Assembly: GCA_944368875.1 (NCBI GenBank)
Contig: CALVXF010000022.1
Span: forward strand, 217-64,216
DNA: 64,000 bases
From: an uncultured Bacilli bacterium
Lineage (GTDB): Bacteria; Bacillota_I; Bacilli_A; RF39; UBA660
Direction: 5' to 3'
A program made the translations under genes and the position numbers. The notes beneath the pieces are model-generated. The model made no database searches. It saw nothing but the letters and a program-made list of their open reading frames with translations, and was not told the DNA's origin. Below are positions 61,090 to 63,136 of the stretch, piece after piece. Numbering within the stretch: position 1 is the first letter of the stretch; each line of letters opens with the position of its first letter.

Positions 61090-61112
61090 AAAGAGCATTT
61101 GCTCTTTATTTT
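61090..61112. terminator. bidirectional terminator between the LtaS-family gene and the convergent M23 peptidase gene
   Basis: AAAGAGCA..TGCTCTTT hairpin flanked by A/T runs. Confidence 0.55.
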
Positions 61113-61894
61113 ATTGTCAAAACTTGACCTGGTTTAATTAGATTTGGATTACTACCAATTATTTTTTTATTGTCTTCATAAATAATTTGCCATGTAGTAT
61201 TAAACTTTTTAGCAATCCTACTTAAGGTGTCACCTTTAACAACTGTATAAGTTTTAACATTTGCATTTGTACTAATATTTTCCTTAGCTACCCATCCTAG
61301 TTTATCAATATGATATGGTTTTGTTCCTTTTAAATTGATGATGGTAATAATTCCTTCGTGATTGACTAAAGTCTTACCAGCTTTACCGCCATAACTATTA
61401 CTATACAAAGTGCCATTGACAACTACTTTATCGCCAACTTTAAAACTTACATCAGATGTTTCTTCTTCATATGTTTCAGCAAAAACTTCAGGATCGACAT
61501 ATTCTTTTTTATTTAAATCATATATTGCTAAATGTAGATGAATACCAGTGGCTAAACCTGTTTTACCAGTATAGCCAATAATAGTATTATTATCGACTTG
61601 TTGATTTTTGGATACTTTAATACTGTCTAAATGATAATGGGACATATTCACGTTTAGACGGGGATAATTAATTACTACAAATTTTGCTCCAGCTTGGTCT
61701 GTTCCAAGATTGACAATAGTTCCTTTTTCTAATGCATATTGTGGAAGTTTTTTGCCATCAGTTCCATAATCTGTACCATTATGGAATGTAGGTGTAGTAA
61801 CACCATTTACAACAATACTACTGCGATCACCAAAATTGCTTGTAATATAGTGTTTGGATCCTTTAAAGATTTTCTCCGTTATTTTGCTCATCAT
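61106..61894 (-). CDS. M23 family peptidoglycan endopeptidase with C-terminal LysM domain (endolysin-like)
   Basis: M23 motifs HYHLD and GIHLHLAIYD. LysM YTVVKGDTLSRIAKKF..IKPGQVLTI. The start is ambiguous among the three ATGs downstream of the GGAGGTG RBS; the track gives 61906. Confidence 0.75.
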   Translation of the reverse strand: MMSKITEKIFKGSKHYITSNFGDRSSIVVNGVTTPTFHNGTDYGTDGKKLPQYALEKGTIVNLGTDQAGAKFVVINYPRLNVNMSHYHLDSIKVSKNQQVDNNTIIGYTGKTGLATGIHLHLAIYDLNKKEYVDPEVFAETYEEETSDVSFKVGDKVVVNGTLYSNSYGGKAGKTLVNHEGIITIINLKGTKPYHIDKLGWVAKENISTNANVKTYTVVKGDTLSRIAKKFNTTWQIIYEDNKKIIGSNPNLIKPGQVLTIK

Positions 61895-62285
61895 CATCAC
61901 CTCCATTATCTTTTTTAAATTTTTGAAGTAGTTCTATTAGAACAGTAGGTATTTTTATTCCCATTTCTTTCCAGTTTTGTAAAATATTTAAAACATGATT
62001 AAATACAAACAAATAGATAACAACACCTCTTACCATTCCATTACTATTCATAAATTTATCTAGCATGAAAGAAATAGACACAATGATTAAATATCCCAAT
62101 TTAACAATAATTACTTTAACACCATCCATTAGATTAAATTGTTTCTGATATATTGCTTTGGCAACTTTAGTTATAAGATCTAAAAGCATAACCATTAATA
62201 ACATTTGTAAAGCATTATCTAAACCACCTAAATAGTAGATAACACTAGTAATAAAAGAACATAGTATAAAAACTACAATACTCAT
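61863..62285 (-). CDS. phage-type holin (LL-H/toxin-secretion holin family-like)
   Basis: Three TM helices. The MLLMVMLLDLITKV motif is typical of the holin_4 family. Start at MSIVVF after an AGGAGG RBS. Overlaps the downstream hydrolase gene. Confidence 0.55.
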   Translation of the reverse strand: MSIVVFILCSFITSVIYYLGGLDNALQMLLMVMLLDLITKVAKAIYQKQFNLMDGVKVIIVKLGYLIIVSISFMLDKFMNSNGMVRGVVIYLFVFNHVLNILQNWKEMGIKIPTVLIELLQKFKKDNGGDDDEQNNGENL

Positions 62286-62344
62286 AATGCCTCCTTTCAC
62301 TTTATTATATGGAGGTATAAAAAAAGATTATGTGCCGCCATAAT

Positions 62345-63136
62345 CTATATTAATTCTTTTTTATTATAATGTATAAGCGTTAATCCTAAAAACAAAATAA
62401 TGAGCATAAGACTTATTAAAATAATCATAGGATTTAAAGAACTATTTTCAATAACATATCTAGTATCAGATAAAGTAAAAATGGAAAAATATTTTAAAAA
62501 ACTGACATTATCGCTTACAGAAGCAATAGTTTGTAAAATATAACTAATAAAAACTATACCTAAACTTATTCCCACCATCTTTTTTGTTTTATGAGTGAAA
62601 GTTGCTAGAAACATACTTAAACTAAAAAATACTAAAGCAGGAAAAAGTGGAGTAATACTTAATAATAAATAACTTTTTTGATCAAAATCGCCACTTAATG
62701 CTAGTCCTATATAGTTAAAAATCCCCAGTCCTAAAACCATTAGAAAAACATAACATATACCACATAAAAACTTAGTCAAAACAATTTTAGAACGCGTAAC
62801 TGGTAAAGTATTCAAATATTCGATTGTTTCATCGCTCTCTTCTTTAAGTAAAATATTAGATCCCAAAATACTCGCATAACTACCGATAATAAGAAGAATG
62901 AAAACAAAACCTTCTGTTTTAATCCAACCAAACACAGTATCAATAGAGGCAATATCCATATTAAAAGCTTTTAGAAATTCTTCTGGAAATATAGCCATCA
63001 TTTCATCAAACATCTCCATATTATTTTGATCAAACATATATGGATAAATAAGAAAAACAACTAAGAAAATACCTATTAATACACCTAACCATATCAAAAA
63101 ACTTTTTAAATTAACTTTCATCTCTCTTAAAAACAT
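62345..63136 (-). CDS. ABC-2 family transporter permease
   Basis: Six TM helices with the ABC-2 exporter architecture. Directly downstream of the ABC ATPase gene. Confidence 0.65.
   Translation of the reverse strand: MFLREMKVNLKSFLIWLGVLIGIFLVVFLIYPYMFDQNNMEMFDEMMAIFPEEFLKAFNMDIASIDTVFGWIKTEGFVFILLIIGSYASILGSNILLKEESDETIEYLNTLPVTRSKIVLTKFLCGICYVFLMVLGLGIFNYIGLALSGDFDQKSYLLLSITPLFPALVFFSLSMFLATFTHKTKKMVGISLGIVFISYILQTIASVSDNVSFLKYFSIFTLSDTRYVIENSSLNPMIILISLMLIILFLGLTLIHYNKKELI

Follow-up and report, generated by a model that had tools for sequence, protein, structure and literature searches.

A phage-type holin-lysin pair beside smpB in uncultured gut Bacilli is probably a domesticated lysis module

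Why should a phage-type lysis pair stand among ordinary chromosomal genes, with no phage around it? The question is raised by a 64-kilobase (kb) stretch of DNA from an uncultured Bacilli bacterium (contig CALVXF010000022.1), which we analyzed as a whole and call the window. In the reported feature at its right-hand end (61106-63136), a holin gene overlaps the gene of a peptidoglycan hydrolase, here called the lysin, with both genes on the minus strand. The host lineage consists of uncultured gut Bacilli, and its genome has a GC content of 29%. An earlier note on this DNA had listed toxin or bacteriocin release, mother-cell lysis and a prophage remnant as possible explanations, and had named the adjacent ABC-2 (ATP-binding cassette) transporter genes as a possible immunity or export partner. 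Our analysis favors a phage-derived lysis module that has been domesticated as a resident host gene pair in this lineage, a reading to which we give a probability of roughly 60%. The two genes of the pair are the following.

61863 to 62285, minus strand: holin of the Phage_holin_4_1 / TIGR01593 family, 140 amino acids (aa); PF05105, PHROG 199, TIGR01593
61106 to 61894, minus strand: endolysin-type peptidoglycan endopeptidase (the lysin), 262 aa; Pfam M23 and LysM

The product of the smaller gene matched PF05105 Phage_holin_4_1 (E 1e-24; 87.3 bits, curated cutoff 22.2), PHROG 199 "holin" (E 2e-17), and the NCBIfam model TIGR01593 "toxin secretion/phage lysis holin" (66.8 bits, curated cutoff 40.2). 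The comparison with the holin_4/TcdE family that had been proposed was run, and by hidden Markov models the protein falls in the holin_4_1/TcdE-type family. Its earlier description as a holin-like protein with three transmembrane segments was right about the family and inexact about the topology. Kyte-Doolittle analysis, by which all hydrophobic segments were called, gave four segments (aa 1-22, 25-45, 52-76 and 83-103) followed by a charged C-terminal tail with 4 K/R and 7 D/E residues, as in a small membrane protein with multiple membrane segments and a charged tail. The holin starts at ATG 62285 behind a ribosome-binding site (RBS), AAAGGAGG, and the GTG at 62300 is only the mechanical start of the open reading frame (ORF). 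The same 140-aa product is also reported by gene callers in 16 public contigs. The core of the RBS, AAGGA, is invariant in the five aligned leaders (5/5), and the complete site is identical in four of them, the remaining one (L049; L numbers are our contig labels) reading GAAGGAAT.

That the holin gene overlaps an M23/LysM peptidase gene was confirmed, and the coordinates given earlier were right. The holin stop at 61863 falls 32 nucleotides (nt) inside the lysin ORF. This overlap with the lysin gene apparently created the acidic tail of the holin, the end of which (GGDDDEQNN) is encoded within the 32 nt (61863-61894, minus strand). The overlap nucleotides also form the lysin RBS and a run of ATG codons (GGAGGTGATGATGATGAGC); the acidic tail is absent from phage holins.

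The lysin matched the Pfam families Peptidase_M23 (E 3.6e-14) and LysM (E 3.6e-14), with the M23 domain at approximately aa 1-145, a beta-rich, SH3b-like domain at approximately 156-202, and the LysM domain at the C-terminus (approximately 214-262). Across 25 aligned homologues, residues H38/D42 (HxxxD), H86/H88 and H119/H121 (HxH) do not vary, and HYH is among the invariant motifs. The protein aligned with the PDB sequences of Pgp3, ShyA and LytM. Its AlphaFold model (pLDDT, the predicted local distance difference test, 90.7) contains the M23 domain, the beta-rich middle domain, and LysM. Foldseek matched this model to PDB structures of ShyA, StM23, prophage EnpA, LytM and full-length lysostaphin, with a probability of 1.00 for ShyA, LytM, EnpA and lysostaphin. 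The lysostaphin match covers the full-length protein over approximately 220 columns, and the middle domain is therefore taken to be SH3b-like. Sequence and model thus contain what characterizes an active M23 enzyme (HxxxD, HxH, a catalytic His and the M23 fold), and the lysin is predicted to be an intact M23-SH3b-LysM enzyme, likely active on the walls of these gut Bacilli. Kyte-Doolittle analysis found no hydrophobic segment in the lysin, which indicates that it carries no signal peptide or other export signal. ATG codons at 61897 and 61891 are alternative starts, and orthologues begin with MSKI. The lysin RBS, GGAGGTG, sits within the holin coding sequence. The locus is thus a cassette in which a holin gene overlaps the gene of a signal-less peptidoglycan hydrolase.

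This arrangement is the canonical phage type, as had been recognized, and real phage cassettes with the same two families exist (L028 and L040). On the 32-kb metagenomic contig L028, which is of prophage or phage origin, genes of HK97-gp10-like, tail-tube, tape-measure and tail type come first, and behind them lie a holin_4_1 gene, an ORF of 47 aa and an M23-LysM lysin. The holin and lysin of L028 are the nearest relatives outside the lineage, with 43% and 50% identity, respectively, to those of the window (41-43% for the holin over the comparisons made). The window holin also aligns with the holins of L025 and L040. Fourteen viral contigs of IMG/VR carry the same M23 type, and one of them (L040) has a holin_4_1 gene immediately upstream; these relatives came from an alignment-based scan, and a single-sequence scan of IMG/VR returned nothing. 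From the presence of both families in phage and viral cassettes, we conclude that the pair comes from a siphophage-type cassette and that its two genes were taken up together. Among cultured phages, the holin has no BLAST-level relative, and the lysin has only M23-domain matches of approximately 30% to actinophage lysin A. An exhaustive search gave 1,360 holin relatives, with identities above 45% only in the genus cluster of the window organism itself, so the holin of this lineage has long been evolving on its own.

A mobile-element-like setting for such a pair was also seen in L025 (10001-20762) and in L026 and L027. There, a lysin of 46% identity is followed by a 98-aa holin_4_1 protein, in reversed gene order, and the region continues with a sigma70_r4-like gene, an Rv2525c-like glycoside hydrolase, a TED/SpaA pilin with sortase, Phage_rep_org_N and SSB.

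The cassette of the window shares with the siphophage cassettes of L028 and L040 the two families, the order of holin then lysin, and the signal-less lysin. It differs from them in lacking structural, replication and integration genes and in being inherited vertically beside smpB. The siphophage cassette is the tail end of a late operon, whereas the pair described here has a conserved promoter of its own; in L028 a small ORF separates holin and lysin, whereas here the two genes overlap by 32 nt. No phage genes were found within 9 kb to the left of the pair or in the 2.4-4.8 kb past the window end. The flanks contain no complete prophage, the pair lies neither inside a phage or prophage nor at the end of a late or structural operon, and the orphan status ascribed to it earlier stands.

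To follow the pair beyond the window species, seven independent contexts of the cassette were compared, found via genomes with the LtaS-like neighbor and via contigs of graded lysin homologues: the window species (including L002, a contig identical to the window), the congener L011, L029/L030, L031, L049, L024 and L032. The holin-lysin pair is convergent with LtaS-smpB in the window species, L011 and L029/L030. In L049 the lysin is convergent with the LtaS-like gene, where the contig ends, and in L031, L024 and L032 it is directly convergent with smpB. The resident lysins (54-100% aa identity) form one neighbor-joining clade, apart from the phage and mobile-element copies, and lysin identity (81, 82, 67, 61 and 54%) tracks SmpB identity (93, 90, 81, 70 and 73%, respectively). 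Nei-Gojobori estimates of the synonymous rate (dS) and of the ratio of nonsynonymous to synonymous rates (dN/dS) were obtained between the window, L011 and L029 and are listed below, with dS given for the window against L011 and L029.

Lysin: dN/dS 0.12-0.13, dS 0.87
Holin: dN/dS 0.13-0.31, dS 0.43-0.51
LtaS-like: dN/dS 0.09-0.12, dS 0.79-0.87
SmpB: dN/dS 0.06-0.08, dS 0.56-0.64
RNase R: dN/dS 0.07-0.10, dS 0.81-0.83
ABC genes: dN/dS 0.13-0.14, dS 0.61-0.64

The lysin dS of 0.87 is close to that of the flanks (approximately 0.8), and between two genomes without a holin, L024 and L032, the lysin dN/dS is 0.19. Within the window species, the holin is identical in 16 of 16 contigs, and the lysin is full-length wherever a contig covers its gene. 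Judged by these comparisons, the pair is a vertically inherited resident locus beside smpB under purifying selection. If the pair were instead an inert prophage remnant, that is, the last genes of a degraded prophage with no host function, the phage type of the genes would be accounted for, as would the decay seen in L049 (a holin stub and a lysin without LysM). Against such a remnant stand the unchanged chromosomal position in species whose lysins are as little as 54% identical, the monophyletic clade, dN/dS values of 0.12-0.31 with dS equal to that of the flanks, an invariant promoter, the intact copies in the same-species contigs that cover them, and the lack of any other phage gene nearby. 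The shared site, the single clade and the purifying selection make an inert remnant very unlikely. The suggestion of a prophage remnant is thus retained for the origin of the pair and given up for its decay.

The upstream region of the holin gene was then compared across the lineages. Apart from a hairpin loop of 5-6 nt, the window, L011 and L029/L030 have the same 60 nt between the stop codon of the upstream ABC-2 permease gene and the holin ATG, and synonymous sites of the flanking genes differ by 35-50% across the same genomes. The elements of this region are listed below.

62328 to 62334, minus strand: conserved -35 region box CACATAA, from the alignment
62304 to 62311, minus strand: conserved -10 box CATATAAT, within the invariant block TCCATATAATAAAGTG; window, L011, L029, L031 and L049
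62290 to 62297, minus strand: holin ribosome-binding site AAAGGAGG, 4 nt ahead of ATG 62285
62318 to 62346, minus strand: terminator-like hairpin of the ABC operon, AGATTATG, a loop of 6, CATAATCT, then T7, from the RNA fold

Over approximately 50 nt, the promoter region reads CACATAA, a 16-nt spacer, then CATATAAT-AAAGTG-AAAGGAGG-N4-ATG. Both boxes are kept in five lineages (window, L011, L029, L031 and L049), and the spacer between them varies by lineage. The CACATAA box is not TTGACA-like and a sigma70 scan called no site there; by eye, no known stress-sigma consensus was recognizable in the conserved promoter. Promoters of sigmaE and sigmaK share their -10 element and differ at -35, with ATA for sigmaE and AC for sigmaK, at a spacing of 16-18 bp (PMC3789822), and the -10 box of the Clostridioides difficile sigmaK promoter as quoted there is identical to CATATAAT (PMC3789822). 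In the window, CATATAAT is preceded by the ATA of CACATAA at 17 nt and by the AC at 20 nt, distances that make it a match for the sigmaE type. By alignment, the cassette has its own conserved, putatively private promoter, which is not sigma70-like. The stem of the ABC-operon hairpin is conserved and its loop varies among species; its 3' arm overlaps the -35 box.

Three other candidate elements in this region were discarded. A sigma70-like site at 62451-62424 (10/12 matches, in the 3' end of the permease gene) was rejected as the cassette promoter because it falls in coding sequence that L011 has in another form and that L029, L031 and L049 lack. An inverted repeat, GATTATG/CATAATC, was rejected as a regulator-binding site since it occurs only where the ABC operon is or was present, and it is better explained as the terminator of that operon. 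A hairpin (CCTCC...GGAGG) that would mask the holin RBS as an anti-Shine-Dalgarno element was set aside as well: L031 does not share its CCTCC arm, which in addition precedes the conserved -10 box and is therefore probably outside the transcript.

The same promoter boxes were found in lineages that have no intact holin. In L031 they stand directly before the lysin, with the holin RBS and ATG fused to the second codon of the lysin; as read from this junction, the holin was deleted precisely in L031. In L049 a stub of 10 holin codons comes after the boxes, and the lysin, which has an RBS of its own, comes after the stub. These remnants of promoter and holin ahead of the lysin show that the holin is ancestral and was lost at least twice. 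As the holin was lost while lysin and promoter were retained, the lysin and its promoter would form the conserved core. The L049 locus (398-1227) is a decaying cassette, in which the lysin has 232 aa and a lysine-rich tail in place of LysM, with no LysM Pfam match.

How might such a module serve its host? On the domestication reading, the dedicated conserved promoter would have holin and lysin transcribed as one translationally coupled unit, and the lysin, having no export signal, would build up in the cytoplasm. The four-segment holin_4_1 protein would permeabilize the membrane so that the lysin could reach the peptidoglycan, cut peptide cross-links, and lyse the producing cell. The use would then be programmed autolysis controlled by an alternative sigma factor. 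The lysin would be the core component, given that sister lineages dropped the holin and kept the lysin under the same promoter and under selection.

Among possible occasions for such autolysis, mother-cell lysis or the freeing of spores as sporulation ends, on the model of CwlC, appears the most plausible, and we propose it tentatively. CwlC of Bacillus subtilis is signal-less and sigmaK-dependent. A signal-less wall hydrolase under a mother-cell-like promoter would fit a role in mother-cell lysis, with or without a holin. Genes associated with sporulation were found close to the cassette in relatives: Coat_F (cotF) lies immediately upstream of the promoter in L031 (E 8e-18) and in L049 (E 5e-17), and Spore_GerQ lies 5 kb away in L024 (E 1e-34). 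L049 is closely related to the window organism (80% identity in LtaS). The sigmaE/sigmaK-like promoter and these cotF/gerQ neighbors favor mother-cell lysis over the other uses that had been listed earlier, and the role itself is still a matter of inference. In its fuller form, the proposal is that the module was captured once and put under a sigmaE/sigmaK-type promoter beside a spore-coat gene, and that it lyses the mother cell to free the spore, with the lysin indispensable and the holin an optional accelerator. We regard this scenario as no more than tentative.

Several observations weigh against the favored explanation, its sporulation part included. No sporulation gene was recognized in the 64-kb window itself, and the cotF/gerQ evidence comes from relatives only, the closest being L049. 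The motif behind the promoter call is short and AT-rich, the genome has 29% GC, and the -10 box contains TATAAT; the AC dinucleotide, at 20 nt from the -10 box, is too far away for a classic sigmaK promoter. A scan of approximately 220 kb of lineage DNA met the strict motif at the cassette and nowhere else, so that it defines no regulon; looser sigmaE-like patterns match mostly intragenic noise in the same DNA. The regions upstream of the relatives' gerQ and cotF genes gave no clearly matching promoter in this AT-rich DNA. The holin dN/dS is above that of the lysin and the holin was lost repeatedly, so the holin may bring its host little benefit. Since the lysin of L049 has shed its LysM domain as well, the module is dispensable in some lineages.

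Much of the same evidence could be read as that of a spore-associated hydrolase, with a lysin made in the mother cell and placed on or in the spore for a role in the cortex, the coat or germination, as with the LysM-bearing spore proteins of B. subtilis, and with the holin a vestigial passenger. The lysin's missing signal peptide, the position of cotF immediately upstream in L031 and L049, the sigmaE/sigmaK-like promoter, and selection on the lysin where there is no holin would all agree with this. The LysM domain of the lysin also has a weak match to the LysM model of the spore-coat proteins SafA/ExsA (E 4e-7, below cutoff), but the SafA match is far under the family cutoff. In the window clade, moreover, the holin is under selection (dN/dS 0.13-0.31) and translationally coupled to the lysin, which would be unexpected for a passenger, and we consider this role rather unlikely.

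The same anatomy would also suit a vegetative or stress-induced autolysis module, acting in the release of extracellular DNA or vesicles, in fratricide or in altruistic death. Lysis modules of retained defective prophages affect vesicle production (PMC7918800), and the window, with no recognized sporulation gene, is compatible with a vegetative role. The -35 region, however, is not sigma70-like and shows no stress-sigma consensus recognizable by eye, and the cotF/gerQ neighbors in relatives point to sporulation instead. A vegetative role therefore seems improbable.

The family name of TIGR01593, the threshold of which the holin exceeds, points to toxin secretion, and TcdE is a member of that family. 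A release system in the style of type 10 secretion, non-lytic or lytic in a subpopulation only, would export a signal-less cargo such as a toxin, a bacteriocin or a large enzyme. Documented orphan holin/endolysin cassettes release chitinase, Tc toxins and TcdA/B (PMC10847048, PMC10109510, PMC12150058). In the seven contexts, however, there is no conserved cargo candidate adjacent to the cassette, though a cargo could be encoded elsewhere. The upstream neighbors vary (the ABC-2 pair, small unknowns, cotF, a 162-aa unknown), and the sole constant neighbor, smpB/LtaS, is convergent and housekeeping. Sister lineages, furthermore, discarded the holin, the defining secretion component, yet kept the lysin. 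The wider search for bacteriocin, toxin and prophage genes that had been called for was carried out and found none in the contexts examined. With no toxin or bacteriocin gene in any of them, toxin or bacteriocin release lost its support, and cargo release in general is unlikely.

It remains to place the transporter genes and the other neighbors. From 61.1 to 64.0 kb, four co-oriented genes lie on the minus strand (ABC ATPase, ABC-2 permease, holin and peptidase), and Pfam confirmed that the flanks of the pair are LtaS-like and ABC genes, as described earlier.

63146 to the window end, minus strand: ABC ATPase; full length 289 aa in the identical contig L002
62345 to 63136, minus strand: ABC-2 permease; PF12679, E 4e-25
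61085 to 61112, both strands: bidirectional intrinsic terminator with a 12-bp stem, a loop of 4 and a T-rich tail
59124 to 61085, plus strand: sulfatase/LtaS-like gene, convergent to the lysin; Pfam search

A functional unit of the cassette with the ABC-2 exporter would join immunity or export of the bacteriocin/lantibiotic type to a release cassette. In the window and L011, cassette and transporter genes stand side by side in one orientation, and the ATPase resembles DrrA and lantibiotic-protection models, below family cutoffs. Only the window species and L011, however, have the ABC-2 pair upstream of the cassette. L029/L030, L031, L049 and L024 lack it at this position, and the contig of L032 ends too near the lysin to show what lies upstream. 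Between the ABC operon and the cassette stand the operon's own terminator hairpin and the cassette's separate promoter. No bacteriocin gene was found beside the transporter genes, and PADLOC gave only P-loop/ABC-type ATPase components for the ATPase, with no specific system. The transporter is thus neither conserved in its co-occurrence nor co-transcribed with the cassette. By gene order, the ABC-2 pair is a neighbor and not a conserved partner; the partnership proposed for it earlier did not hold, and a joint unit is extremely unlikely. PADLOC annotation of anti-phage defense gave zero matches for the holin, the lysin and the permease.

In L029 (approximately 1620-1699) and at the equivalent position in L030, the last approximately 20 nt of the permease ORF and the terminator hairpin are retained, the hairpin being identical to the stem of the window. 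This relic indicates that the ABC pair was deleted there. The genes upstream in L029/L030 encode a 103-aa unknown and a 203-aa protein with a weak CFI-box-CTERM match.

On the other side of the pair, the terminator at 61085-61112 is common to the lysin gene and the convergent LtaS-like gene. The left flank consists of the LtaS-like gene, smpB, two tandem RNase R paralogues, a 108-aa ORF and rmuC, all on the plus strand, in line with a strong leading-strand GC skew. The stretch of smpB and the LtaS-like gene covers 58690-61085 (plus strand). The LtaS-like protein has 653 aa with a long N-terminus of multiple transmembrane segments, and its TTG start at 59124 lies 4 nt before the smpB stop; in L031, L024 and L032 no such gene stands between lysin and smpB. 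The RNase R paralogues (54379-56487 and 56562-58715, plus strand) lie upstream of smpB and have approximately 47% mutual identity. In L029 (5282-7386) the second one is broken into ORFs of 491 aa and 148 aa, possibly a pseudogene or a frameshift, and the more distant relatives L024 and L032 have a single RNase R plus a PGA_cap gene instead of the tandem. Past the window end, contigs identical to the window, including L002, carry an MGMT-like gene, a membrane-anchored HTH_3 protein and unknowns; a look-up with the ABC permease gave these contigs again, none longer than 10 kb. L011, unlike the window species, has two non-phage ORFs and an ABC/FtsX fusion beyond the ABC pair. Prophage integration at a tmRNA beside smpB was considered and rejected, since neither ARAGORN nor Rfam found a tmRNA anywhere in the window; no other attachment-site candidate was found near smpB. 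At the window start, a 5S rRNA gene (40-144, plus strand; Rfam, 72 bits) suggests that an rRNA operon lies just upstream of the window.

The earlier statement that there are no other phage genes was borne out, although the window is not free of genes of mobile type. A conjugation-type block, resembling type IV secretion system (T4SS) and Tad genes, occupies 27628-52238 (plus strand; approximately 27.6-52 kb) and begins just after tRNA-Leu(CAA) at 27424-27509. It is not of phage type. Its parts include an RcpC/CpaB-like protein, a T2SSE ATPase, TadB/C-like proteins, two pseudopilin-like proteins, TrbL_4 (VirB6-like), a VirB4-like TraG P-loop/AAA_10 ATPase, a 552-aa CHAP hydrolase and a VirD4 coupling protein (T4SS-DNA_transf, E 2e-58). 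Neither an integrase nor a relaxase was recognized in the block. Its distal end, with the coupling-protein gene and the genes that follow, is syntenic in L011 at approximately 77% aa identity, so the block looks lineage-resident rather than like a recent integrative and conjugative element. A link between this block and the cassette was rejected because the two are 9 kb apart with housekeeping genes between them (syntenic in L011 and L029), and the block has a CHAP hydrolase of its own.

Among known systems, the pair is a host-retained orphan lysis cassette, a class that already includes TcdE/TcdL, type 10 secretion systems (T10SS) and the lysis modules of defective prophages. As with TcdE/TcdL of C. 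difficile and the T10SS, exemplified by the chitinase of Serratia and Salmonella and the Tc toxin of Yersinia entomophaga, an orphan phage-type holin, with or without an endolysin, is kept for host purposes. Unlike them, the cassette described here has no adjacent cargo and no TcdR-type sigma gene, and its enzyme is an M23 endopeptidase. In B. subtilis, the mother cell is lysed by the late-sporulation hydrolases CwlC, CwlH and LytC (CwlB) (PMC6403190). The likeness to these wall hydrolases lies in the sigmaE/sigmaK-like promoter and in the signal-less enzyme with a wall-binding domain. The Bacillus enzymes, however, are amidases with no dedicated holin and no evident recent phage ancestry, whereas the enzyme here is an M23 endopeptidase, and its control by sporulation is inferred.

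The XhlAB-XlyA proteins of PBSX in B. subtilis are the lysis module of a defective prophage kept by its host, and DLP12 of Escherichia coli is a further example. Phage lysis genes retained by hosts are put to use, for example, in vesicle formation (PMC7918800). Such modules are still inside recognizable prophages, whereas here two genes stand alone and are conserved over species-to-genus-level divergence. With lysostaphin, LytM and prophage EnpA the lysin shares the M23 fold and the zinc-ligand and catalytic motifs, and with lysostaphin the combination of M23 and SH3b over approximately 220 columns; it differs from them in an extra C-terminal LysM domain and in having neither a secretion signal nor a pro-region. 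What is mildly new is the evolutionary record, in which a single capture by the lineage, a settled place beside smpB and selection were joined by the gain of a promoter and by more than one loss of the holin; a possible use as a spore-release device would be new as well.

There is growing recognition that orphan holin-endolysin pairs serve their hosts as tools, in toxin release, vesicle formation and programmed death. The present case offers a clean record of domestication, from capture through a fixed site at smpB, selection and a private promoter to precise holin deletions. If the link to sporulation is true, these Bacilli would release their spores by a route unlike the amidase-based CwlC/CwlH/LytC system of Bacillus. 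The locus would then show how non-model gut spore-formers, which are relevant to host-to-host transmission, free their spores, and it would provide a defined promoter motif for tracing the mother-cell regulon in uncultured Bacilli.

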